Shown: positions 1-10,530 of the stretch, piece after piece
Position numbering within the stretch: position 1 is the stretch's first letter
How the letters are laid out: each line of letters opens with the position of its first letter
Assembly (NCBI RefSeq): GCF_035285525.1
Contig: NZ_JAYKGW010000203.1
Coordinates: 1 to 10,530 of the forward strand
Direction of reading: 5' to 3'
DNA length: 10,530 bases
From: Okeania sp.
Lineage (GTDB): Bacteria; Cyanobacteriota; Cyanobacteriia; Cyanobacteriales; Microcoleaceae
The notes under the pieces: generated by a model
Database searches by the model: none
Told to the model about the DNA's origin: nothing
What the model saw: the letters and a program-made list of their open reading frames with translations, nothing else
Made by a program: the position numbers and the translations under genes

Positions 1-210
1 CGCTCAATGCTTACTATTGTGCAATAGATAATTTTCTGATAGCGCTCAATGCTTACTATTGTGCAATAGATAATTTTCTGATGGCTATCAATGCTTACTA
101 TTGTGCAATAGATAATTTTCTGATGGCTATCAATGCTTACTATTGTGCAATAGATAATTTTCTGATAGCGCTCAATGCTTAACTATTCCACAATAGATAA
201 TTTTTTTTTG
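1..210. repeat. Tandem array of a 42-bp unit: 4 full copies (1-42, 43-84, 85-126, 127-168) plus a degenerate fifth (169-~210). The array continues beyond the left window edge.
   Basis: Unit is cgctcaatgcttactattgtgcaatagataattttctgatag. The copies differ only at the junctions (..atagCGCTc.. versus ..atggCTATc..). Each unit holds the palindrome CTATTG-tg-CAATAG. The fifth unit has a 1-nt insertion (gcttAactatt) and ends in a T9 run. Confidence 0.95.
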
Positions 211-211
211 C

Positions 212-254
212 ACTTACGCAGGCAAATCCAGAAACCAGATTTATTTGTGTAAGT
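212..254 (+). repeat. Short hairpin repeat, family copy R1 (ACTTACGCAG...TGTGTAAGT)
   Basis: The 5' arm ACTTACGCAGGCAAATC pairs with the 3' arm GATTTATTTGTGTAAGT. Three of the four non-Watson-Crick positions are G.T (G.U) on the + strand and the fourth is a C.A mismatch. About 85% identical to 9479-9519. Confidence 0.8.
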
Positions 255-300
255 TACAGCCATTTTTCTTAAACAAACCCAGCTTATTAATTTTGATAGA

Positions 301-392
301 ACTTACGCAGAAACCGGGTTTATCAAAGAAATTTGGTGATTTGAGCAACAAGAACGGTAATAAACCCGGTTTCTTGATTGCTTTGCGTAAGT
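301..392 (+). repeat. Long-hairpin (MITE-like) element R2
   Basis: ACTTACGCA (301-309) plus GAAACCGGGTTTA (310-322) pairs with TAAACCCGGTTTC (361-373) and TGCGTAAGT (384-392). There is a 10-nt bulge (374-383) on the 3' arm and a ~38-nt loop. Confidence 0.8.
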
Positions 393-424
393 CTGGTTTG
401 ATTGAAAGTAAGAGGAAACCTAAT

Positions 425-1600
425 ATGTCAGAGCAGAACAAAAGTCAATGGGAAAAAAATGCCGAACGGCAAAAAGATGACGATCGCCGTAGAAGAGACA
501 AAGAAGAGTGGAAAGCATTTCAGGAAGCAGAGAACGCTAGAAGAAAACGGGACAGCTATTATTCTCGTCAAGAAGCAGAGGCTACTTTGAATATACTAGA
601 AGCATTACTAGCTTTATGTTGTAGCGCAACAAAATTAATTATCAAAAGTTTTACTAAACCCAAAGAAATCCAAGAAATAATAGATAATGCTCTCGACAAT
701 ATTCCTATCATTGGATGGCTCAATGGCTGGATCGAACAATTCAATCAAGATATTAAGAAAAGTGAAGACGCATTCAAGAAATTCGGTAGTAATTATTGGA
801 TTCGCTGGTATTTGTTGTCATCTGTCAATGCCATTATGATGTCTATTTACCGATGCGGAGTAATCTGGCTTTTTTTAGTATTTTGGTCTTGGTTTTTCTC
901 ATATTCTGTGGGAACTATAATCCCGGAAGGAGTTATAACAATATCGAGTTCGGGTAAAGATTTATTCATTGTACTTGGAGAAAAAGTTGGCTTCCTCGCT
1001 CAAATATTTATCAAGTACGTTCCAATAAATGTTGCATTAATTTGGTGGCTGGCTATGGGACCACCAGCAGTCCGTCAAAATCAATTAATAAATCTAGTAA
1101 TTAAAACACTTCCCTTCCTGATTAAAACACTTGTAGATATTACTTACTGGACTATTTGGTTATTCGTCTATCCATTGATAGCATTGGTTTTATCTTTACT
1201 TTTAGCAGGCACAGGAATTTTGATAAACTCATTAATTTCAACTGCTTTTACTAACCAAGATGGATTTGTTTTCGTTTTGGAAAAATTTGTAGATAATTTC
1301 AGTTCTATCATTGCATTTGTCGGCGAGACAATATATCTGAGGTTCCCACCATCACACATACGCAGGGGTATGACCTGCTTAACCATAGCTAAAATTCTTG
1401 CAGGTTTGTTGTTTTTGCAACAGCCCCAACTGGCTAGTTTAATAGATACTCTGGAAATGCCGTTTTTAATTAGCTTGATGCGTGGTTGGTTAATAGCACA
1501 AATATTGTGGCTCTTCATCGCTGATACTTTTGTGCGAAAGGCTATTTTATGGTGTTTCCATCAGGGAACATCTATTGGGAGAAGCAGTCGTTCAGAATAG
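425..1600 (+). CDS. Multi-pass integral membrane protein of unrecognised family (391 aa). It has a highly charged N-terminal ~50 aa followed by roughly 7-9 hydrophobic helices.
   Basis: Long ORF in AT-rich DNA. ATG 425 is preceded by AGAGGAAA (411-418). The N-terminus is MSEQNKSQWEKNAERQKDDDRRRRDKEEW..., followed by W/F/L/I-rich segments such as VIWLFLVFWSWFF and WTIWLFVYPLIALVLSLLLAG. The TTG-245 extension consists of the R1/R2 repeats, so I do not treat it as coding. Confidence 0.7.
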   Translation: MSEQNKSQWEKNAERQKDDDRRRRDKEEWKAFQEAENARRKRDSYYSRQEAEATLNILEALLALCCSATKLIIKSFTKPKEIQEIIDNALDNIPIIGWLNGWIEQFNQDIKKSEDAFKKFGSNYWIRWYLLSSVNAIMMSIYRCGVIWLFLVFWSWFFSYSVGTIIPEGVITISSSGKDLFIVLGEKVGFLAQIFIKYVPINVALIWWLAMGPPAVRQNQLINLVIKTLPFLIKTLVDITYWTIWLFVYPLIALVLSLLLAGTGILINSLISTAFTNQDGFVFVLEKFVDNFSSIIAFVGETIYLRFPPSHIRRGMTCLTIAKILAGLLFLQQPQLASLIDTLEMPFLISLMRGWLIAQILWLFIADTFVRKAILWCFHQGTSIGRSSRSE

Positions 1601-1603
1601 TTA

Positions 1604-1693
1604 GGACTTGCATAATTAAAGAAACTGGGTTTATTGCCCTAGTTATTATTTTTCGCTTTCACCCGTTGATAAATCCGGTTTCTGCGTAAGCCC
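1604..1693 (+). repeat. Long-hairpin element R3. Same family as R2 but in the opposite orientation (bulge on the 5' arm).
   Basis: GGACTTGCA-taattaaa-GAAACTGGGTTTAT (1604-1634) pairs with ATAAATCCGGTTTC-TGCGTAAG (1669-1690). Both internal non-Watson-Crick pairs are G.U on the + strand. It begins 4 nt after the stop codon of the 425-1600 CDS and may also terminate it. Confidence 0.7.
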
Positions 1694-1730
1694 TAGTCAA
1701 AAACGACAAAATGTGATAATTATAAACAAA

Positions 1731-1807
1731 GTCAGACTTAACAATTATATCAGGAGGAATCTACTATGAAATACCAAGCTTTTTTCAGTTATATAGAATC
1801 CGGGTAA
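1731..1807 (+). pseudogene. Remnant of the leader, RBS and first ~9 codons of a paralogue of the TPR gene at 9572
   Basis: 1731-1792 matches 9537-9598 at 54 of 62 positions. The match includes CAGGAGGAAT, the ATG (1766) and MKY..FFSY. Homology stops at ~1792 and the frame ends after 13 codons (MKYQAFFSYIESG*). Confidence 0.6.
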
Positions 1808-2010
1808 TTAGTTATCGTAGTTTGTAACACAGCCTTCAAGGCTGTAACAAGCAGGATGCTTGAACTGCAAAATTGAATCTTTAAGTAGTTATAGAGCTAT
1901 AAACGTACACTGTATAACCGGATTATATATTATTTAACCATAAGTTATGTTCTAATTTTAACCCCCTGTTAAATTAAGATTGGTTCAAATAGAAATAAGC
2001 AAGGTCATTT

Positions 2011-3195
2011 ATGAGCAAAATCAGGTTTTTGATTATCACTTTAATCAGCTTTTTAACTGTTGTATTGCCGACTATACTAAACAAAACTTTCTCTATTTTT
2101 CTCTGTGGTTTACTGAGTTTTAATTCAGTGGGATGTTATGCAAACTTTAAGGATAATTCTGCCCAGGCAACTTTATCTCCCACTAATACTGAAATAACTA
2201 AAGTATCAATCACAATCGGACAAATACCCAGAGCCAGAAAACCAAATATTAATTTGGATTTGCAACAGGCACTACCACAGGATTTTTTGATTACTACTCA
2301 AATGCCTTTTAGTTCTGGTAAAAGAGAAATTTATCTCATTTCTCCCTCAACCAAAGCTCAACAAATTTATACAGTTAATTTACCTAATGCCAGGTTTCAA
2401 TTATATGGAATTAAATTTCAAAATATACCTGTTATTGATGAGAGTAAATTAACCAAAAGAAATCGCCTAATTCTTAATAGAATTAAGCCTGAAAGTCTCA
2501 ATGATTTTCAAGTCGCATTTGAAAACAATAAATTATCAAAAATTGTTCTAGCTAACGGCAATCAAGGAGAATTTACTGACACTCAAGCTATTATTAAATC
2601 AGCTAATGGTCAAATAATAGAAACTATTGATTTTTCCCAGGTAAATCGAACTGAAGAAACTTTAATTGCTACTACTAAGTCGATGTTATTAACATCATCT
2701 AACTGCAATCAAAATGTTAGTTCAAAATTAGATAATATAGCCGACTTTGTTGGAGTTCAGGGAAATAAACTAGCCTCTAGTGAAAATCAAATTACTCGAA
2801 ATGTCGGATTAGCTTTAGCTGCTACTTCTGCGGCCTTAAAAAATAATATTAATTCTAGACAATCCCTACCTATTGCTAGCTGTGAACGAGCTGTTCAATG
2901 TAATGAAAAGCGGGTAAGTGGAGCTAGTGAAATGAGAAGCGATTTATTTGAAATTCCTAGAGGAGCTAATCCTAAAGTTGCTTTAGAATACGATTTTTTT
3001 GACATTCCCGACACTATTGAACTGTATTTAGATGGTAAAACAATCTATTCTGATGGTCCTAAATCAGAACGACATCAAAGAACATTAGATTTACCAAATA
3101 ATGCAGAATATGTTGGGGTGCGCTTGATTGGAAATCTAGACCCAAAAACTCGATGGTGGTATGTAATTTCTTGTTCCGAAAGTGCAATAGAATAA
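2011..3195 (+). CDS. Hypothetical exported or membrane-anchored protein (394 aa), family not recognised
   Basis: Long ORF with an ATG and AAGG about 8 nt upstream. Hydrophobic N-terminus (MSKIRFLIITLISFLTVVLPTIL...FLCGLLSFNSVGC). Polar N/Q/S/T-rich body. Cys-containing C-terminal segment ...EYDFFDIPDTIELYLDGKTIYSDG...WWYVISC. Confidence 0.65.
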   Translation: MSKIRFLIITLISFLTVVLPTILNKTFSIFLCGLLSFNSVGCYANFKDNSAQATLSPTNTEITKVSITIGQIPRARKPNINLDLQQALPQDFLITTQMPFSSGKREIYLISPSTKAQQIYTVNLPNARFQLYGIKFQNIPVIDESKLTKRNRLILNRIKPESLNDFQVAFENNKLSKIVLANGNQGEFTDTQAIIKSANGQIIETIDFSQVNRTEETLIATTKSMLLTSSNCNQNVSSKLDNIADFVGVQGNKLASSENQITRNVGLALAATSAALKNNINSRQSLPIASCERAVQCNEKRVSGASEMRSDLFEIPRGANPKVALEYDFFDIPDTIELYLDGKTIYSDGPKSERHQRTLDLPNNAEYVGVRLIGNLDPKTRWWYVISCSESAIE

Positions 3196-3494
3196 CCAAC
3201 GCTCCTTGTGGTGATGATGAAATACAGGTTTCTTATGATCAAAAGTCTGAAAATTATCATAGTTACAAAGTAGACAATGAAGCTTGCTTCCTTAACACTC
3301 AGGGTTATAATGTTAATTTTGTTTTTAACGTTATGGTCAGTAATAAACAATTTATTGCGCCAGACCATGAAAGTCAAAAAAAAGTTGAGAATTGCCAAAC
3401 AACAGATTTGAATATATTCGGTCTGTTTGGTAAAGATACTATTAGAACAACTATCAATAAACCTAATAATTATATCACAAACTACACGAGATAA
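3153..3494 (+). CDS. ORF of uncertain status overlapping the end of the previous gene. It could be a separate small protein or a -1-frame continuation of 2011-3195.
   Basis: This frame is open from 3102. The translation looks like a soluble protein (CGDDEIQVSYDQKSENYHSYKVDNEACFLNTQGYNVNF...). There is no obvious RBS. A 113-codon open frame is unusual by chance in DNA this AT-rich, but the opposite strand is also open here. Confidence 0.3.
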   Translation: MVVCNFLFRKCNRITNAPCGDDEIQVSYDQKSENYHSYKVDNEACFLNTQGYNVNFVFNVMVSNKQFIAPDHESQKKVENCQTTDLNIFGLFGKDTIRTTINKPNNYITNYTR

Positions 3495-3710
3495 AATCAT
3501 GTTTTAAACCCTGGTAAAATAACTATAAAAATTGTTGAAAAAAAATGGAAAAATATATGTTCTTACTTGGGGAGAAAGTACAGGAATTTTGCCGACATTG
3601 AATGAGTAGCTGTCTGGAAGTTTATGGGGAGAAGTCGATAAAAAATTAATAAAAAAAAGTCAACGAAATTTTATCTAATAAAATCTACTCTCTACCAGAG
3701 TAAAAATATT

Positions 3711-3740
3711 TTGCCAAAGCCGTAAATTTGGCAATATAAT
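3711..3740 (+). promoter_or_regulatory. Candidate sigma70-type promoter (TTGCCA-N18-TATAAT) with an embedded 8-bp inverted repeat
   Basis: TTGCCA at 3711-3716 and TATAAT at 3735-3740, about 130 nt upstream of ATG 3873. TTGCCAAA (3711-3718) and TTTGGCAA (3727-3734) form a perfect inverted repeat spanning the spacer. Confidence 0.35.
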
Positions 3741-3872
3741 ACTAAAAATCTAACCAACTAGGTACAAATTTGAATTGGTAAAATTATTGTACTGTGCACA
3801 TCTAGCTCACGATATTTCTACCTCGTAACAACGGGGAGTGCTGTAACAATCTGATTAAGGAGAATTAAAACT

Positions 3873-5393
3873 ATGAAAAGAAAACATAAATTATTTATCT
3901 TAAGTCTACTTTTAGTCTTACTTCTGAAAATTGGTTTCTCATGGCAAATAGCGATCGCTAAACCCACACCCACCAACCAACAACCAGAAAAAATTAGCCA
4001 AACAGAAGCCACTCCCACTGAAACCGAAACCGAAACCGAAACTAAAGTAGATACTGAAGCAGAAGACTCCTACGAAACCCTGCTCGAAGCAGATTTTCTG
4101 TATCAGCAAGGAGAAAGAGAAGCAGCAGAAGAACTTTACCGAAAAGTCAAAACACCCTTTGCATCTCATCAAAACACCATGTTTTCAGACCCCATAAACA
4201 ACACCGAAAATTTACCAACCGAGATTCAAACCGAGTGGGAAGAAGCAAAAAATGCTGCTGACAAAAATGATAATCTGGAGATGTTGCAAGAGTTTGTAGC
4301 ACAACATCCAGAATTTGTTCCTGGTCATTTATTCTTAGCTAAAACATTACAAAAGAACGAAAAGAAAAAAGAAGCTCTGCAAGTTCTAGAAAAAGCCTCC
4401 AGTATTTTTCCCGACTCAGTAGAAATAGTTGAAGCTCATGTCAAAGCACTGAGAAAAGAAAAAGACTATTTAGAAGCATCCATCGCAGCTCGTCAATTTG
4501 TGTTAGTTAATCCAGAGCATCCAGAAGCAGCAAGGTTTCTAGAAATTGCTGACGAGAACTTTGAGAAATTCCAGAAGAAAATTAAGGGGCAAATGGTAGG
4601 CAAAGGTATCTTGGGAACAGCTATCCGAGTTGGTGGTTGCGCTGTACTCGGTAATTGTAATGTATTGGGAACTGTTCTGGGAGAAGGCATTAAAATGGGT
4701 AGTTTGCTGCTCCAAGGAGAATCAGGTTTAGGCAGTCGAGTAGCAGAAGCATATAAGAAACAACTCTCACTGGTGGAAGATGAGGAAGTAGTCGAATATG
4801 TGAGTAAAATTGGTAATTCTATTGCGGAGTTAATGGGTAGAGATGATTTTGAATACGAATTTTATGTAGTGAAAGATGATTCCCTCAATGCTTTTGCTTT
4901 ACCTGGGGGTAAAGTATTTGTGAATACTGGATCGATTCTTAATACTAATTCTGAAGCAGAGTTAGCAGGTTTACTTACCCATGAAGTTGCTCATGCAGTT
5001 CTTTCCCACGGTTTTCAAAGAGTTGTGACTACTAACTTGTACGATAGTGCAGGGGGTGTTGTTCGTGATGCGTTAAAAACTAACATTCCTATTAGCAGTA
5101 TTGCTACAAGTTTGATTAGTTTACGTTACAGTCGGAGCAATGAGCGTCAAGCGGATATTGTTGGTACTCGTGTTTTAGCTACTGCTGGTTATGCTGCTGA
5201 TGGTTTAAGAAATTTTATGGCAACTCTGGATGAAAAAAAAGGTGGTAAACGTTCTTTGGGTTTTCTTTCCAGTCACCCCCAGTCAGATGATCGGGTTGAC
5301 TATCTGGAACAATTAATTGAATATAATGGTTACAATCGTTATGCTTTTGAAGGAGTGGAGAAACATAGAGGGATTCAGGAAAAGTTAATGTAA
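3873..5393 (+). CDS. M48-family zinc metallopeptidase (506 aa) with a signal peptide and an N-terminal helical, TPR-like region
   Basis: AAGGAG at 3858-3863 precedes the ATG. Signal-like MKRKHKLFILSLLLVLLLKIGFSWQIAIA. Family motifs present: NAFALPGGKVFVNTG, HEVAH (4980-4994) and the downstream SRSNERQADIVGTRVLATAGY. Confidence 0.9.
   Translation: MKRKHKLFILSLLLVLLLKIGFSWQIAIAKPTPTNQQPEKISQTEATPTETETETETKVDTEAEDSYETLLEADFLYQQGEREAAEELYRKVKTPFASHQNTMFSDPINNTENLPTEIQTEWEEAKNAADKNDNLEMLQEFVAQHPEFVPGHLFLAKTLQKNEKKKEALQVLEKASSIFPDSVEIVEAHVKALRKEKDYLEASIAARQFVLVNPEHPEAARFLEIADENFEKFQKKIKGQMVGKGILGTAIRVGGCAVLGNCNVLGTVLGEGIKMGSLLLQGESGLGSRVAEAYKKQLSLVEDEEVVEYVSKIGNSIAELMGRDDFEYEFYVVKDDSLNAFALPGGKVFVNTGSILNTNSEAELAGLLTHEVAHAVLSHGFQRVVTTNLYDSAGGVVRDALKTNIPISSIATSLISLRYSRSNERQADIVGTRVLATAGYAADGLRNFMATLDEKKGGKRSLGFLSSHPQSDDRVDYLEQLIEYNGYNRYAFEGVEKHRGIQEKLM
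4020..4043 (+). repeat. Hexanucleotide repeat (GAAACC)x3 plus GAAACT inside the M48 gene, encoding (ET)4
   Basis: gaaaccgaaaccgaaaccgaaact, read directly; in frame. Confidence 0.85.
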
Positions 5394-5409
5394 AAAATGG
5401 AGCGATCTA

Positions 5410-5553
5410 ATATCATGTCGGGATAAGAGCCCAATCAAAAAAACTTGCTCCTCCTTTTCCTCTCTTGGGAAGGGTTAGGGGTGGGTTAACTTGTAATTCA
5501 TTCCTCCTGACTCTTTCCCTCTTTATCTATAACTATTTAATCGGACATGATAT
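5410..5553. repeat. Segment of ~145 bp bounded by inverted repeats (possible MITE or decayed element) just downstream of the M48 gene
   Basis: ATATCATGTC (5410-5419) and GACATGATAT (5544-5553) are perfect 10-bp inverted repeats, with partial extension (..GGGAT / ATCGGA..). The interior is rich in polypyrimidine and polypurine tracts. Confidence 0.4.
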
Positions 5554-5608
5554 AACTCCACAATTTCCATTCTTTAGTGTAAAAGGGCGATCGGTAGCAA
5601 TGGAACAG

Positions 5609-5646
5609 ACTTACGCAGACTCTAGATATAGTGCCTTTGTGTAAGT
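5609..5646 (+). repeat. Short hairpin repeat, family copy R4
   Basis: ACTTACGCAG (5609-5618) pairs with TTGTGTAAGT (5637-5646) through two G.U positions. It is followed by AGTCCTG (5645-5651) ... CAGGACT (5673-5679). Confidence 0.75.
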
Positions 5647-5702
5647 CCTGAAACAATGAAAATTTATGCACACAGGACTAAAGCCATGAACGTTATTAGT
5701 AG

Positions 5703-5729
5703 GGTGCGTTAGCCTCAGCATAACGCACC
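5703..5729. other. Perfect 9-bp stem with a 9-nt loop
   Basis: GGTGCGTTA-gcctcagca-TAACGCACC, read directly. Confidence 0.7.
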
Positions 5730-5733
5730 GATA

Positions 5734-5763
5734 CGCTATATATAGCGCCTTTCCGTAAGTCCT
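5734..5763 (+). repeat. Partial hairpin-family copy R5 (3' arm only) preceded by a perfect 14-bp palindrome
   Basis: CGCTATATATAGCG (5734-5747) then CCTTTCCGTAAGTCCT. This parallels tagatatagtgCCTTTGTGTAAGTCCT at 5624-5649. Confidence 0.5.
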
Positions 5764-5907
5764 ATCACAGTTAAAGCAATGTGCGCACTTAATATTTACA
5801 AATCACAGGAACTGTCCAATAACTAAAAGTCTTATTTTATTAAGCAATTTATTCCTTCTGTTCCCTGCGCACAGCGCTATATTATTTGGGAAATCAATCA
5901 AATAATT

Positions 5908-7905
5908 ATGTCACGTTACAAAGTTGGTGGAAACTTAGCAGCAAATCATCCTACTTATGTAGTCAGAAAACAAGATACAGAATTATATGAAAAACTCTTA
6001 GCTGGAGAATATTGTTATATATTCAATGCTCGTCAAATGGGTAAATCTAGTTTGCGAGTGAGCGTGATGAAAAAATTACGTTCCCAAGGTTGTCAATGTG
6101 CAGTAATAGATATGAGTAGATTAGGTAATTCTTCTGCGCCAGAAAAATATTGGTATCGTCAATTTATGAAAAAGATATTTGGGGAATTGAACGATTTTTC
6201 GGTTCAAGAAAAGTCTTGGTGTAATGGATTTATCAAAGAATTATTTAGTGAATTTAATTTAAACTATAGTATCAATTCTCAAGAATGGATAGAAAATCAT
6301 CAAAGTTGGATAAGTACCCAAATTTTAGTTCAATTTATTGAAGAAATTTTATTCATTAATTTTCCAGCACCGCAAAAAATATATATTTTTCTCGATGAAA
6401 TTGATGCCCTGGTAAATTTACCTTTTAAGAATCAGTTTTTTGCCTTTATTCGCTCTTGTTATAATTTCCGAGCCGAAGCTGAAAATTCTGATTATCATCG
6501 GTTAGTTTTTGGTTTTTTTGGAGTAGTAACCCCAGAAGATTTAATTAAAGATGGCAAACATACTCCTTTTAATATTGGTCATGGTATTGAATTAACAGAG
6601 TTAACTTTTGAAGAGGGTAAAAAAAGTTTAATGGAAGGCTTAAAAGAAGTAGTTGATGAACCAGAAACTGTTTTAGAGAAAGTTTTTGATTGGAGTGGCG
6701 GTCAACCTTTTTTAACTCAGAAAATTTGTCAAATTATTCTTGATTATACTGATACTACTCAACCAGATATTGATAGTTTGGTAAAAGAACATATTTTGAC
6801 AGATTGGGAAGATAAAGATCGGCCTACTCATTTAAAATATATTCGCCATTATTTACTCAGTGAAACTTTACTTGCGCCTCAGTTACTGAGGCTATATAAA
6901 AAAATTTTATTGCCAGGAGAAATTAAAGTTAATGATAGTTCTATACAAATGGGATTGAGGCGATCGGGTATAGTTATTAAAAAACGAGATAAGTTGGTTG
7001 TTTTTAATAAAATATATCAGACAATTTTTAATCTAGATTGGGTAGAAGAGCAGTTAGCAAATTTAAGAAATCAAGGTCAAAAAATCTGGCCTCCTAATTG
7101 GAAACAAGTTGCTAGTTTAGTAATTTTCCTGGGAATTAGTTGGCAGTTATCGGTGCAGAAGTTTTTGTTAGATAGGCGGGTGTTTTTACAAGCTATTTAT
7201 CGTCAATATACTCGTCAAAATTCAACAAATAATATTCCCCCTGTGTTGTTAGTGCAAATAGATGATGAATCAATTATTAAAGCAGAAATTGCCCAACCTA
7301 ATCCTATGAGAAGGGATTATTTAGCTAGTTTAGTTAAACGAGTTTCTGAGTTAGAAACCAAGGTCATTGGAATTAATTATTTATTAGATCGCTCTCATAA
7401 AAGAAGGGATGGAGGAGTAGGCGATCGCCTCTTAGCAAAAGCTATTCCAACAGCAGTAAAAAAACAACAATTGATTGTTCTGGTTAACCGCAGCGGCTAT
7501 ACTATAATTCCTGAAATTGCTAATTTGAATTTGATTTTACAAGGAAATGTGAAAGTGATAAGTAATGGAAGATATTTAGCACTCCCCAATCTTGAATCTT
7601 CCGATGTAAAAGATTTTACTTTTTCCTCTATGTTGTTATTAGCTTATCACTTAAATTATGAGAAAAAGTCTGATAGTTTACCTCAAGTAAACTTACAAAA
7701 TCAGGTTAATTTTTCAGTTAATTATCAAAAATATTTTTCTGGAGTTTATCTTTGGAAATCCCTCACTTTTTTTTCCTATCGGTTGAAACAAAGGTGGCTG
7801 CTTCCAATTGTAGACTTTTCTATTAGTTATGACCAAGTATATGACTGTATTCATGCTTGGCGACTTTTGGAATCTCATAATTCTTTAGCTTCCAAAAAAA
7901 ACTAG
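5908..7905 (+). CDS. AAA-like (STAND-type) P-loop NTPase, one TM helix, and the N-terminal part of a CHASE2 domain. The reading frame is cut short by a frameshift in an A8 run.
   Basis: The N-terminus YKVGGNLAANHPTYVVRKQDTELYEKLLAGEYCYIFNARQMGKSSLRV matches the cyanobacterial 'AAA-like domain' family as I remember it. Walker A is GKS (6040-6048) and Walker B is IYIFLDEID (6379-6405). TM helix VASLVIFLGISWQL (~7109-7150). CHASE2-type start PPVLLVQIDDESI...RRDYLASLVKRVSELETKVIGINYLLDR. Confidence 0.85.
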   Translation: MSRYKVGGNLAANHPTYVVRKQDTELYEKLLAGEYCYIFNARQMGKSSLRVSVMKKLRSQGCQCAVIDMSRLGNSSAPEKYWYRQFMKKIFGELNDFSVQEKSWCNGFIKELFSEFNLNYSINSQEWIENHQSWISTQILVQFIEEILFINFPAPQKIYIFLDEIDALVNLPFKNQFFAFIRSCYNFRAEAENSDYHRLVFGFFGVVTPEDLIKDGKHTPFNIGHGIELTELTFEEGKKSLMEGLKEVVDEPETVLEKVFDWSGGQPFLTQKICQIILDYTDTTQPDIDSLVKEHILTDWEDKDRPTHLKYIRHYLLSETLLAPQLLRLYKKILLPGEIKVNDSSIQMGLRRSGIVIKKRDKLVVFNKIYQTIFNLDWVEEQLANLRNQGQKIWPPNWKQVASLVIFLGISWQLSVQKFLLDRRVFLQAIYRQYTRQNSTNNIPPVLLVQIDDESIIKAEIAQPNPMRRDYLASLVKRVSELETKVIGINYLLDRSHKRRDGGVGDRLLAKAIPTAVKKQQLIVLVNRSGYTIIPEIANLNLILQGNVKVISNGRYLALPNLESSDVKDFTFSSMLLLAYHLNYEKKSDSLPQVNLQNQVNFSVNYQKYFSGVYLWKSLTFFSYRLKQRWLLPIVDFSISYDQVYDCIHAWRLLESHNSLASKKN

Positions 7906-8023
7906 AAAATGTGAAGTAACTCAAATAATTGAAGATCAAGTTAAACAACAGATAGTAATAATAGTTCCTGGTGGATATGACAATGCAGGGCTAAAATACG
8001 GGGATGATAATTATACTCCACTG

Positions 8024-8371
8024 ATGGCTTTTAGTTATTGGAATAATGACAAAATTTTAACAGGAGGTGAAATTCATGCCTATATGCTACATCATCTTCT
8101 AATTAATAGAATAGTGATTCCTATACCTGATTTCTGGATGATTTGGGTGGGGGCTTTTTTGGGTCAAGGTGTGATTATTTTATTGCATAAATATCCAGGA
8201 AAGCGTGGTGAGTGGGTAGGGGTTTTTGTAGTTACTAATTTTGTTTATTTAATAGTTAGTTTGCAGGTTTATATTTCTGGGGTGTTTGTGTTACCTATTG
8301 TGTTGCCTTCTGTTACCTTTTGGATTTATATTCTACTGCATTATCGGATAAAAAATGATTTCCCAACTTAA
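8024..8371 (+). CDS. C-terminal part of the same CHASE2 protein in the +1 frame. This frame is open from 7889; ATG 8024 is only the first Met.
   Basis: Frame-2 translation from 7889 reads ..KKTRKCEVTQIIEDQVKQQIVIIVPGGYDNAGLKYGDDNYTPLMAFSYWNNDKILTGGEIHAYMLHHLLINRIVIPIPDFW. Three hydrophobic helices follow. This is the typical end of a CHASE2 domain. Confidence 0.8.
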   Translation: MAFSYWNNDKILTGGEIHAYMLHHLLINRIVIPIPDFWMIWVGAFLGQGVIILLHKYPGKRGEWVGVFVVTNFVYLIVSLQVYISGVFVLPIVLPSVTFWIYILLHYRIKNDFPT

Positions 8372-8441
8372 CTGTGGTATAAATCAAGTAAAATTTTCTA
8401 TCCCTAAAATATGTTTTGTTGAAAATTAAAAGGTGAAAAAT

Positions 8442-9077
8442 ATGCGTTATAAATTTTATTCATTTATATCTTTTTTTCTTCTATCAGTTTCTGGCTTACT
8501 ATGGGTGAATTATTATTCATTAATTAGTCAAGTAAATGCTCAAGTTATTGCTCAAAAGTCGCCTTCTAGCCAATACATTTTGGATCGACTCCAAGAAATA
8601 ATTTTTAATGCTAAAGAAGAACAATCCGAACCTCCAGAAACCTCTGATAAAAATACTTCTCGTGGTGATGATTTTTGTTTAATTGCACCTTGGTTATACA
8701 AATTAGAAAATTCCTCAGAGCAAATATTTGTAGAAGTTTTCCGAGAGCAACCTATCTTTATTTGGCAGAAAGATGCAGGGGCAATTTTCATACAAAATCC
8801 TGAAACTCAGGAGACAATTTGGGCAGAAGTTGTGGATTATGGAGTCAGAAAAATGGTTTATTCTGGTCAAACTTTAGAGAAGGGAAAAATTTATCATCTT
8901 TTCTTACACGAAGGCGATACAACTAGCTCTCCTTTTCCCTTTAAAATTATTAGTGGAAATCGCCGAAAAACTATTGAAGCAGAGTTGCAAAAATTGGAGA
9001 AAAAAGCTGGTGCTGCTTCTGCTGAAGAGATGGCTTTATTACGAGCTGATTATTTTCTGAAGCAAGGTTTATTATGA
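8442..9077 (+). CDS. Exported DUF928-like protein (about 211 aa from ATG 8442; the ORF track starts at GTG 8433)
   Basis: AAGGTG (8429-8434) lies 7 nt before ATG 8442. Signal peptide MRYKFYSFISFFLLSVSGLLWVNYYSLISQVNA-Q. The pattern ..SRGDDFCLIAPW...PIFIWQ...YSGQTLEKGKIYHL...LRADYFLKQGL fits my recollection of the DUF928 consensus (R-G..C..L.P, P-hF-W, L..Gk.Y, YA..G). Not verified by HMM. Confidence 0.55.
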   Translation: MRYKFYSFISFFLLSVSGLLWVNYYSLISQVNAQVIAQKSPSSQYILDRLQEIIFNAKEEQSEPPETSDKNTSRGDDFCLIAPWLYKLENSSEQIFVEVFREQPIFIWQKDAGAIFIQNPETQETIWAEVVDYGVRKMVYSGQTLEKGKIYHLFLHEGDTTSSPFPFKIISGNRRKTIEAELQKLEKKAGAASAEEMALLRADYFLKQGLL

Positions 9078-9169
9078 GATGCTTTTAATAAGATGTTATC
9101 AGTAAAAGAACCCTCTGATGAACTGAATGAAACTTTGAAAAAAATTAAGAAAGAAGAGTTTTGCCCCAC

Positions 9170-9200
9170 CAAGTAACACAAGCATCTTACTTGTTAATTT
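9170..9200 (+). terminator. Weak candidate intrinsic terminator
   Basis: CAAGTAA (9170-9176), a 10-nt loop, TTACTTG (9187-9193), then TTAATTT. The stem is short and AT-rich. Confidence 0.2.
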
Positions 9201-9291
9201 AAAGTAAAACAGACAAAATTCCTGTTAGTCTAACCCACATTCCGCAGGTCAACTTCCAAAATTAAAAATAGTGTGAAAAAAGGAGACTAAA

Positions 9292-9504
9292 ATGCAGCTA
9301 ACTAAAAATTTTCTGTTTTCAATCAGAAAACTAGGTTTTTCTGTAACTACAATTACTGGATTAGTTATTAATTTAACCACTGAAATAGCATTAGCAGGGA
9401 CTGCATGGCAAAAGCGAGAAATTACCAGGATTAACATATATATTTGCCATGCAGTAGATAATTTTTTTTGCTATTCAGACTTACGCAGGCAAACCCAGAA
9501 ATGA
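9292..9504 (+). CDS. Small 70-aa ORF with a hydrophobic N-terminus and a Cys-containing tail; unknown function
   Basis: This is the strongest RBS in the window: AGGAG at 9281-9285, 6 nt before the ATG. Translation is MQLTKNFLFSIRKLGFSVTTITGLVINLTTEIALAG...INIYICHAVDNFFCYSD... The last ~17 codons run into the dispersed repeat at 9454-9522, so the true 3' end is uncertain. Confidence 0.4.
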   Translation: MQLTKNFLFSIRKLGFSVTTITGLVINLTTEIALAGTAWQKREITRINIYICHAVDNFFCYSDLRRQTQK

Positions 9505-9522
9505 GTTTTCCGTGTAAGTCCT
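9454..9522 (+). repeat. Hairpin-family copy R6 with its upstream TAGATAA-T8 segment. Paralogous to 194-254.
   Basis: gtagataattttttttg..ACTTACGCAGGCAAACCCagaaatgagTTTTCCGTGTAAGTCCT aligns with caatagataatttttttttgcACTTACGCAGGCAAATCCagaaaccagATTTATTTGTGTAAGT. Confidence 0.8.
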
Positions 9523-9571
9523 GAGTTGGAAATCAAGTCAAACTTAACAATTCTATCAGGAGGAATTTACG

Positions 9572-10319
9572 ATGAAATATCCAACTTTTTTCAGTTACTT
9601 AACTCTGAGTTCTATCCTAACTTTAACTCCGGTTAAGTTAGGATTAGCTCAAACTCAAAATTCACTGTTAAACTATCAAAAGATTGTACAAGATCAAATC
9701 AGTCACAACTTAGGAAATCAGATAAATAGACTTTATCAACAAGGAGAGAAACAATTAAAAGCAGGTCAATTGCAGGGAGCTTTAAATAGTTATCAGCAGG
9801 CTTTAGCTATTGCTAAAAAAATGGGTAATTCCCAGTTTTTACAAGGGTTAATTTTACAAAGGATCGGAATAGTTTATGGATACCTAAGCGAGTACAAAAA
9901 AGCATTACAAAACTATGAACAAGCTGGGAAATTTTTTCAAGCAGAAGGGAAAACTAAGGATGTTGCATGGACGCTTATATACATTGGTAACGTTTTCAGA
10001 GATTTACAGAATTTTGAAGAAGCAGAAAAATTTTATCAGCAAGCTTTAGAAATTAGTAAAAAAATTGGCAGTCGAGATGTGGAAGGAGAAAGTATCAATG
10101 GTTTAGGCAGCCTCTACAATATTCAGGAGAACTAGGATTTAGCACTGAAATATTATCAACAAGCTTTGCAGCTTAACCAAGAAGAAGGCGATCGCCAAGG
10201 TGAAGGAGTAGTTATTAACAACATTGGAGTCGTTTATCGACAACAAAGTAAATACCAACAGGCGTTAGATGCTTACAAAGCAGCTTTGAAGATTGACAGA
10301 GAAATTAGTAATCGCCTTA
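9572..10319 (+). pseudogene. Exported tetratricopeptide-repeat protein, disrupted by an in-frame TAG (10133-10135) and truncated at its 3' end by an IS insertion at 10320
   Basis: AGGAGG (9560-9565) precedes the ATG. Signal-like MKYPTFFSYLTLSSILTLTPVKLGLA-QT. About 40-aa TPR units follow (..ALNSYQQALAIAKKMG.., ..ALQNYEQAGKFFQAEG.., ..AEKFYQQALEISKKIG.., ..ALKYYQQALQLNQEEGDRQGEG.., ..ALDAYKAALKIDREISNR). ORFs 9572-10135 and 10166-10348 are in the same frame. Confidence 0.85.
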
Positions 10320-10385
10320 GGCTTTGTTGCACAAAAGGTGACGTTTAGGCTATAAATAACATCAGGATCATACGAATCAGTAGAT

Positions 10386-10530
10386 ATGAGTAAGTCCAAG
10401 TCCAAGTCCAAGTCCAAGTCCAAGTCCAAGTCTAAGCCTAAGCCTCAATACAAGATCAAGAATTGGTCTGAGTATAATGCATCCTTGAAGCAACGAGGCA
10501 GCCTAACATTTTGGCTTAATCAAGAGGTAA
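10386..10530 (+). CDS. IS5-family DDE transposase, N-terminal fragment (partial at the window edge)
   Basis: MSKSKSKSKSKSKSKSKPKPQYKIKNWSEYNASLKQRGSLTFWLNQEV. The NW.EYN..L.QRGSLTFW motif is the characteristic N-terminal signature of IS5/IS903-type transposases. Confidence 0.75.
   Translation, partial: MSKSKSKSKSKSKSKSKPKPQYKIKNWSEYNASLKQRGSLTFWLNQEV
10392..10445 (+). repeat. Hexanucleotide microsatellite (AAGTCC)x6 plus AAGTCT and AAGCCT x2, encoding (KS)7(KP)2
   Basis: Read directly. In frame at the 5' end of the transposase ORF. Confidence 0.9.

Follow-up and report, generated by a model that had tools for sequence, protein, structure and literature searches.

How did two blocks of DNA that lie almost side by side near one end of a contig come to stand 1469 nt apart near its other end, with an intact gene between them? 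The question is raised by NZ_JAYKGW010000203.1, a contig of an NCBI metagenome-assembled genome (MAG) labelled Okeania sp. (GC 34%), whose whole length of 10,530 nt was analysed and is referred to here as the window; its sizeable open reading frames (ORFs) are on the + strand throughout. At the downstream locus, a left-hand block containing a hairpin is followed after 10 nt (9520-9529) by a right-hand block containing the leader of a gene with TPR domains, whereas at the upstream locus the same blocks enclose positions 255-1723 and with them M, a gene for a 391-aa membrane protein. We favour, at a probability of roughly one half, a history of ordinary genome decay in which the upstream locus received a copy of a ~1.6-kb segment and the downstream locus later lost M.

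Paralogous blocks, M and the X stub

The right-hand blocks (1724-1791 and 9530-9597, both +) were recovered by self-BLAST of the window and by a repeat finder as an ungapped match of 59/68 positions (87%, E 6e-15). Each holds a leader, the motif AGGAGG, an ATG (1766 upstream, 9572 downstream) and nine codons, reading MKYQAFFSY in the upstream copy and MKYPTFFSY in the downstream copy. The latter runs unbroken into the TPR gene, whereas the upstream leader ORF runs out as MKYQAFFSYIESG, with a stop codon at 1805-1807. The left-hand blocks (191-254 and 9452-9519) match at 77%, gapped, with a self-BLAST E of 3e-7, and consist of two parts, a flank of ~22 nt (CA[A/G]TAGATAATTTTTTTT..GC) and the hairpin. 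The T-run part of this flank (CA[A/G]TAGATAATTTTTTTT) is matched at 17/18 positions, a score reached by none of 5000 random windows of the contig; copy A of the flank occupies 189-211 on the + strand (CACAATAGATAATTTTTTTTTGC, aligned with 9452-9469) and copy B, together with an added TATT, occupies 9450-9475, also on the + strand (TGCAGTAGATAATTTTTTTTGC). Both pairs of blocks are colinear and on one strand. A preliminary description of this DNA had reported two paralogous matches, nearly contiguous downstream and widely separated upstream; self-BLAST and the repeat finder bear out the matches (its 54/62 positions fall within the 59/68 block), and the spacing is as given above. The copies differ by 13-23%, their longest common exact runs are 13-14 nt, and no homology extends rightward past 1791/9597 in self-BLAST or alignment.

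The matches between the two loci reflect genuine paralogy and not generic repeats. The contrary explanation, that both blocks are high-copy sequences that stand in the same order twice by chance, can point to the hairpin, which is a dispersed miniature inverted-repeat transposable element (MITE): the 23-nt 5' arm of the upstream hairpin E1 (ACTTACGCAGGCAAATCCAGAAA) differs at 1 position from that of its downstream partner E6, and is matched at 21/23 positions by copies in other genomes. It can also point to an 8-mer resembling a terminal inverted repeat (TIR), CAGACTTA, with which the upstream leader opens, a candidate that was discarded, as the downstream copy reads CAAACTTA. Against this explanation, the T-run block does not belong to the element in other genomes, where related MITEs (L099, L113) stand without it. 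The leader, for its part, contains a ribosome-binding site, a start codon and the first part of a signal peptide, and its downstream copy leads on into a real gene. The leader was absent from 932 kb of fetched loci (~90 kb of Okeania and Trichodesmium); a 24-nt leader pattern had no match in 241 million JGI metagenome records, and a looser pattern retrieved from the JGI metagenomes only five unrelated matches of a Shine-Dalgarno motif with ATG. Furthermore, the Logan contig L006 (run SRR19514071), identical to window 5792-10349, is unbroken through 9450-9600, indicating that the sample contains no second copy with a long exact match to this region. Within the sequence searched, the matches are thus better than those of generic repeats and their order is conserved, and we consider a chance arrangement very improbable. 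The same contig reproduces the downstream junction exactly in an independent assembly, so the junction is not one assembler's artefact.

M (425-1600, +; WP_324238268.1 / MEB3342838.1, locus tag VKJ25_19045) is intact and encodes a protein whose N-terminus is highly charged and which has about 5-6 hydrophobic segments. No family in Pfam or NCBIfam matched it, and a search of 5.8 billion clustered proteins and a HMMER search of 1.84 billion representatives each found one relative lineage only, P0002 (47-49% identity). This lineage comprises four contigs (L002, L003, L130 and L131), and in 4/4 of them a gene for a protein of ~195 aa, X, lies directly 5' of M on the same strand; no hairpin repeat was found at these four loci. 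The first 47 codons of X are preserved at the downstream locus of the window as the stub X' (9292-9432, +), with 22/47 residues identical by tblastn (E 3e-9), blastp E-values of 2e-11 to 3e-11 against X of L002 and L130, and 68.6% DNA identity over 118 nt, the comparison of X being confined to the window and these four loci. X' ends 18 nt 5' of the downstream T-run block, and its reading frame stays open across the T-run and hairpin until a stop codon at 9502-9504. The small, secreted-looking X and the multi-pass membrane protein M make up a two-gene module that is known from the lineage of the window and from one other, where it lies at 9201-11092 of L002 and 1938-4003 of L130.

Because X, the neighbour of M in the other lineage, survives as a stub ending at the downstream T-run and hairpin, M would originally have stood downstream. 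M now follows closely on the upstream T-run, hairpin and R2 (a further MITE, described below), and joining the loci through the shared block (X', then T-run and hairpin, then M) restores the X-to-M order. The continuity of the leader into its own gene and the position of X' indicate that the downstream locus has its native context on both sides, whereas the upstream copy is cut arbitrarily at either end, stopping after nine codons on the right and bordering on sequence unrelated to X on the left. In the history that we propose, the ancestral downstream locus would have read X' stub, T-run, short MITE, ..., M, R3 (a second MITE, described below), leader and TPR gene. In a first step, ~1.6 kb, from the T-run to TPR codon 9, would have been copied to the upstream position, both ends being arbitrary truncations, and in a second the M-bearing interval of ~1.47 kb would have been lost from the original downstream locus. 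This deletion would start exactly at the intact right terminus of E6, which now lies 6 nt from the leader (9524-9529), and could have been an adjacent deletion made by a transposase or the product of illegitimate recombination at the MITE. The net outcome would be that the sole intact M now lies 7.7 kb upstream of the remnant of its former neighbour, a rare X-M module having been split with X destroyed and M surviving only in the duplicated copy. The preliminary description had offered two alternatives, insertion of a unit carrying the membrane-protein gene upstream or loss of such a unit at 9522-9537; the X' stub at the downstream T-run and hairpin favours the loss, and the insertion is the less favoured of the two. 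The outcome resembles segmental duplication with complementary loss, in that two colinear copies keep different parts, M in the upstream copy and the X stub with the TPR gene in the downstream one, but it differs in its tiny scale (1.6 kb) and in that most of the retained parts are themselves pseudogenes.

Two further changes at the upstream locus would be later and separate events. One is the insertion, by itself, of the MITE R2, for which the evidence is given below. The other concerns a 42-nt tandem array of 4.8 units (1-204, +; TRF period 42, 93% matches), in which each unit joins 26 nt of flank specific to the upstream locus to the first 16 nt (TGCAATAGATAATTTT) of the shared left block. 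Since the unit repeats the beginning of the T-run block, we infer that the array arose by amplification in place, at the left-hand edge of the upstream copy, once that copy had formed. Homology does not extend leftward beyond the T-run block: compared with the tail of X', the tandem unit scores no better than the null, and the unit and 9380-9478 have only TGCA.TAGATAATTTT in common. To the right of E1, a spacer present in copy A only (255-296, +) resembles at 272-293 a fragment of the inner arm (inverted repeat) of the hairpin MITE family, and its last five bases, TTTGA (292-296), are the left target duplication of R2. Scans for sigma-70 promoters and for terminators around both loci gave no excess over shuffles, and we make no promoter claim for the T-run block. 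A near-perfect 17-nt palindrome, ACAGCCTTCAAGGCTGT (1829-1845), which is unrelated to the MITE family, lies right after the upstream leader stub.

Hairpins with ISPlag1-like ends

Six members of one hairpin family, E1, R2, R3, E4, E5 and E6, are found in the 10.5 kb, all of them intergenic, non-coding and 43-100 nt long. They are decayed MITEs with ISPlag1-like ends, CAGGACTTACGCAG. The link was found through a full-text literature search for the terminus sequence, which led to ISPlag1 of Planktothrix, an insertion sequence (IS) with a 29-bp TIR, CAGGACTTACGCAAGCACGCTATATATAG (Christiansen et al. 2008, PMC2464740). ISPlag1 is 1306 bp long, encodes a 337-aa transposase and was placed in the IS701 group by its describers, and 197-bp remnants of it lie at the breakpoints of deletions in the mcy (microcystin) gene cluster of Planktothrix (PMC2464740). 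Any hairpin of the form CAGGACTTACGCAG...CTGCGTAAGTCCTG, a repeat otherwise flagged again and again, can now be named an ISPlag1-type MITE. The pattern CAG(G)ACTTACGCAG...G(T/C)GTAAGTCCTG is found at E4, E6 and R2 (as TAGAAC... in R2), and ACTTACGCAG itself, with up to 2 mismatches, occurs 16 times in the window against 5.3 expected, a count that 0/200 shuffles reach.

R2 (297-396, +) is a complete 100-nt MITE (TAGAACTTACGCAGAAACCGGGTTTAT...GCGTAAGTCTGG; fold -22.8 kcal/mol, z -6.2), and among the window elements it is the one with a target duplication, the 5-bp direct repeat TTTGA at 292-296 and 397-401. R3 (1605-1695, -) is a degenerate inverted copy of the same MITE, R2 on the + strand aligning over ~291-395 with R3 on the - strand over 1701-1605; the repeat finder reports inverted arms of 30 nt that are 90% complementary, and the flanks of R3 in its own orientation, ACTAT and TTGAC, form no target duplication. 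E1 (212-254, +) is a short derivative from which the terminal CAG(G)/CCTG is gone on both sides; its short architecture is common to E6 (9476-9523, +; CAGACTTACGCAGG...GTGTAAGTCCTG; fold z -4.35), which keeps both termini. E4 (5606-5649, +; CAGACTTACGCAG...GTGTAAGTCCTG) is a further short member, identified by its repeat pattern and fold. Target duplications are likewise lacking at E1, E4 and E6, the last being flanked by CTATT and AGTTG. E5 (5733-5765, +; CTATATATAGCG...CGTAAGTCCT) is a solo 3' terminal repeat that matches the published ISPlag1 repeat at 24/29 positions, its 5' arm having been replaced by a different palindrome (5703-5729). An inner repeat, AAACCGGGTTT, marks R2, R3, E1 and E6 as a subgroup, which also occurs in Okeania SIO3B5 and SIO3I5, Planktothrix and Prochloron. 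In E1, E4 and E6 (245-254, 5637-5646 and 9510-9519), ACTTACGCA pairs with TGTGTAAGT, giving a G-T wobble on the + strand and C-A on the other. This one-strand wobble, together with the co-orientation of the copies with the genes, may point to a single master copy as common ancestor or to a role as an RNA hairpin; an Rfam covariance scan of the whole window returned no match at E up to 1.

The family extends far beyond the window. A scan of one genome per species for the pattern GACTTACGCAG-N15-45-GTAAGTCCTG found at least 117 loci; among the matches listed are cyanobacteria (several Okeania species, Trichodesmium, Planktothrix, Microcoleus, Laspinema, Moorena and Microseira) and also Comamonadaceae/Albidiferax, with dozens of uniform GC-rich 61-nt copies per genome, Chloroflexi, Poribacteria, Acidobacteria, Verrucomicrobia and others. 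The three bases 5' of the pattern are nearly always YAG, giving the terminus YAGGACTTACGCAG, which is mirrored by CTGCGTAAGTCCTG. Exact 5-bp target duplications flank 46/122 copies, against 0.78 expected from random re-pairing of flanks, and 22 more have one mismatch; 44% of the family members have none. Because these duplications are far above expectation, the hairpins are transposed elements and not REP-type (repetitive extragenic palindrome) sequences or RNA motifs. From their sequences, they look like a cross-phylum MITE superfamily, defined by the 14-nt terminus YAGGACTTACGCAG and the 5-bp duplication and tied to ISPlag1-like elements. MITEs with an exact terminus and a 5-bp duplication in several phyla help annotation, though they bring no new principle. 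A BLAST search with the consensus MITE against PLSDB plasmids returned only chance 25-nt matches inside Ralstonia coding sequence.

The family label IS701 comes from the authors of ISPlag1, whereas the MITE nature of the hairpins comes from the tests run here. REPs or REPINs mobilised by a RAYT (REP-associated tyrosine transposase) were considered and rejected: a 5-bp duplication is present, the ends match those of DDE-type IS, and the window contains no RAYT. A strict IS701 assignment was likewise rejected, as this family is described as duplicating 4 bp of target and having the ends ---YACT-Y--YR (PMC2266710), whereas here the duplication measured is 5 bp, ACT stands at positions 5-7 and the Y positions misfit. 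The ISH3 family (ends CRGT, 4-5 bp) fits the hairpin termini about equally well as IS701.

Like the ISPlag1 remnants of Planktothrix, the window hairpins carry the terminal repeat CAGGACTTACGCA..., in E4 and E5 also ...GCTATATATAG, and they are short non-coding pieces exactly where a gene or cluster is missing, in a filamentous Oscillatoriales host. Unlike them, they are derivatives of 43-100 nt only, with no transposase gene in the 10.5 kb, most copies belong to the subgroup with the inner repeat AAACCGGGTTT, and the lost unit, in contrast to the mcy deletions, persists as a paralogous copy 7.7 kb away. Bacterial MITEs include Nezha in the Nostocales and the Correia elements in Neisseria. The present family shares with bacterial MITEs generally its small size, the absence of an ORF, hairpin-forming terminal inverted repeats, target duplications, many intergenic copies and nesting, but differs from them in having an identical 14-nt terminus across phyla while the core between the ends is lineage-specific.

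These results bear on the cassette-like mechanism that the preliminary description had proposed for the ACTTACGCAG/CTGCGTAAGT repeats and had thought undescribed. The repeats are ISPlag1-type TIRs and the hairpins ordinary MITEs with 5-bp duplications, and a gene-cluster deletion flanked by remnants with the same repeat was published in 2008 for Planktothrix (PMC2464740), so that neither the mechanism nor its novelty is upheld. Its argument from the junction, that the end of R3 resembles 9510-9525, likewise gives way: the 23/33 match is generic family similarity, the 3' arm of E6 being nearer to that of E4 (26/30). Had E6 combined an E-type 5' arm with the R3 3' arm, this would have pointed to deletion by recombination between MITEs; the 3' half of E6 matches R3 at 23/33 and E4 at 26/30. 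The resemblance to integron cassettes and attC sites, a single promoterless-looking gene beside an imperfect palindrome and absent from the paralogous site, goes no further, as RYYYAAC/GTTRRRY core sites are lacking and the palindromes are the ends of transposons accompanied by target duplications; an integron cassette was rejected as a candidate, since no window ORF has an integrase or recombinase domain and the palindromes end in CAGGACTTACGCAG, not GTTRRRY.

Could R2 and R3 nevertheless have carried M as a unit? In a composite transposon flanked by MITEs, R2 and R3 would be the outer ends, an ISPlag1-like transposase would act in trans, and M would be the passenger delivered between hairpin and leader. 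Composite transposons of this kind include the Tn10-type architecture and the MITE-bracketed integrons of Acinetobacter, and, as in these, two inverted copies of one element of ~100 nt directly bracket a single intact gene; TTTTGA also stands 5' of both outer ends of R2...R3. However, R2 is flanked by its own TTTGA on both sides, which shows that it inserted by itself, and the R2-M-R3 unit as a whole has no duplication (TTTGA and GTCAA at its outer flanks), so that the key test of a composite transposon fails and movement of R2, gene and R3 together, as first suggested, is not borne out. Moreover, R3 is degenerate (GGACTTGCATAA), no second copy of R2-M-R3 was found, and outside the MITEs the R2 and R3 flanks show marginal similarity (p about 0.04). 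In Dapis sp. BLCC-M229 a conserved 447-aa gene likewise lies between two family MITEs 1.58 kb apart (L112, 46-1628) through chance intergenic insertion. The R2-M-R3 architecture is explained by independent intergenic MITE insertions, and we give a composite transposon scarcely any credence. The broader idea that ISPlag1-type MITEs serve as portable handles for moving single genes between paralogous sites, through a transposase acting in trans on R2/R3 or E/R3 or through MITE-templated exchange, appears to us quite improbable; if true, it would make a widespread cassette-like route of gene relocation, as the same 14-nt terminus occurs in MITEs of at least six phyla.

Order of events and assembly support

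A different order of events is conceivable, if unlikely, in which a short unit of ~146 nt (T-run, hairpin and leader) was duplicated upstream first and M arrived later between its blocks, either by double crossover or gene conversion between the paralogous loci on the ~65-nt flanks, with M swapped out of the downstream locus, or by illegitimate insertion replacing about 10 nt. This order needs as many events as duplication followed by loss, and a swap of M would also account for X' remaining downstream. The hairpins lean slightly towards it, since the right terminus of E6 (GTAAGTCCTG) is complete whereas E1 stops at GTAAGT and is followed by unrelated sequence, so that the breakpoint could lie in the upstream copy. 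On the other hand, this order calls for homologous exchange on flanks of ~65 nt whose present identity is only 77-87%, no donor site has left a trace elsewhere, and neither a target duplication nor an insertion signature is found at 254/255 or 1723/1724. A plain foreign insertion would, in addition, make the relation between X' and M coincidental, although both genes are extremely rare. We infer that M stood originally at the downstream locus in both the duplication-plus-loss and the exchange or insertion versions.

The first ~1.9 kb could also derive from elsewhere, or from a related strain in the metagenome, and have been wrongly joined to the rest. In favour of such an artefact, the Logan contigs of run SRR19514071 cover 1903-5804 (L001, which starts at 1903) and 5792-10349 (L006) but not 1-1902, the product of M, at either annotated length, is not on record in other assemblies, and the contig opens in a tandem array and closes in an IS. 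Yet the copies are 13-23% apart, with exact runs shorter than would confuse a k-mer assembler, the upstream copy differs from the downstream locus in both outer flanks and so is no allele of it, and GC content and the MITE family are uniform along the contig. We therefore regard a wrong join as improbable; even with one, the paralogy and the argument from X' and M would hold for the organism or population.

Duplication followed by loss, at an ISPlag1-type MITE, remains the reading that we prefer, and several points weigh against it. Positions 1-1902 are seen in this NCBI MAG contig only, with no independent assembly support. The argument from X and M draws on one comparator lineage, and the intermediate, with X', hairpin, M, leader and TPR gene in one piece, was not found. 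E1 lacks both MITE termini whereas E6 has both, and the upstream junction of E1 with the spacer is not pristine, which insertion into the upstream copy would explain too. The missing target duplication at E6 is weak evidence, given the 44% of the family without one. Of this genome the analysis covered the one contig of the MAG, and the T-run-plus-hairpin block, or else the leader, might turn out to be a repeat peculiar to the genome. With regard to the element, the 5-bp duplication departs from the 4 bp of IS701, a search of 123 loci (932 kb), both between distant repeat pairs and beside solo repeats, found no full-length element carrying a transposase, and the link of the hairpins to an IS derives from one paper (PMC2464740). 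The TPR gene has no orthologue closer than 33% identity, and the ancestral state of the downstream locus therefore cannot be read from relatives. No counterpart of either locus is present in Okeania SIO1I7 or SIO3B5, and both outer neighbourhoods differ from theirs, indicating that the surroundings of both loci have been rearranged relative to these sister species.

Decaying genes and other repeats of the contig

Synteny with Okeania SIO1I7 and SIO3B5 spans window 1986-5388 only (86-88% identity), and the upstream neighbour in SIO1I7 is acetate kinase. Two ORFs within this interval, 2011-3195 and 3153-3494, jointly correspond to one protein of 560 aa in SIO3B5 (85%) and of 522 aa in SIO1I7 (83%); the frameshifted gene at 2011-3494 is probably a pseudogene or the result of a sequencing error. 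In the 5908-8371 region, a protein with AAA_35 and CHASE2 domains ends at 7905, with CHASE2 matched in its first half only, and a 115-aa hydrophobic ORF follows 3' of it at 8024-8371; the region is probably a single AAA_35-CHASE2 gene split by a stop codon or frameshift.

The TPR gene (9572-10348, +), identified by domain search (TPR_12/TPR_1/TPR_2) and provided with a signal-peptide-like N-terminus, is itself decaying: it has an in-frame TAG at 10133-10135, after which the frame is open to 10348, and is cut at about 10349, where L006 also ends, by an IS5-family element. The N-terminus of the IS5-family transposase begins at 10386 (a weak NCBIfam match, NF033579, E 3e-4). This gene decay across the contig fits a genome rearranged by IS and MITE activity, and the locus illustrates in detail how a cyanobacterial genome ridden with MITEs and IS, that of an Okeania, a relative of Trichodesmium, at 34% GC, reshuffles and erodes its genes.

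The remaining repeats are minor. A palindrome at 9599-9658 (CCTAACTTTAAC..GTTAAGTTAGG), unrelated to the MITE family, lies in the signal-peptide coding region of the TPR gene. At the 5' end of the transposase ORF, (AAGTCC) x 7.5 (10392-10436) codes for (SK)n; the tract opens with GAGTAAGTCC, resembling the MITE 3' terminus GCGTAAGTCC, possibly by coincidence or as a tract prone to slippage. A second MITE-like element of ~158 nt, of an unrelated family, occupies 5408-5565 with the ends TAATATCATGTCGGGAT and ATCGGACATGATATAA, and pieces of it are found in Okeania SIO1I7 (L005, 19058-19269, inverted), SIO3B5 (L004, 7835-7855) and SIO2B3 (L036, 5268-5299).

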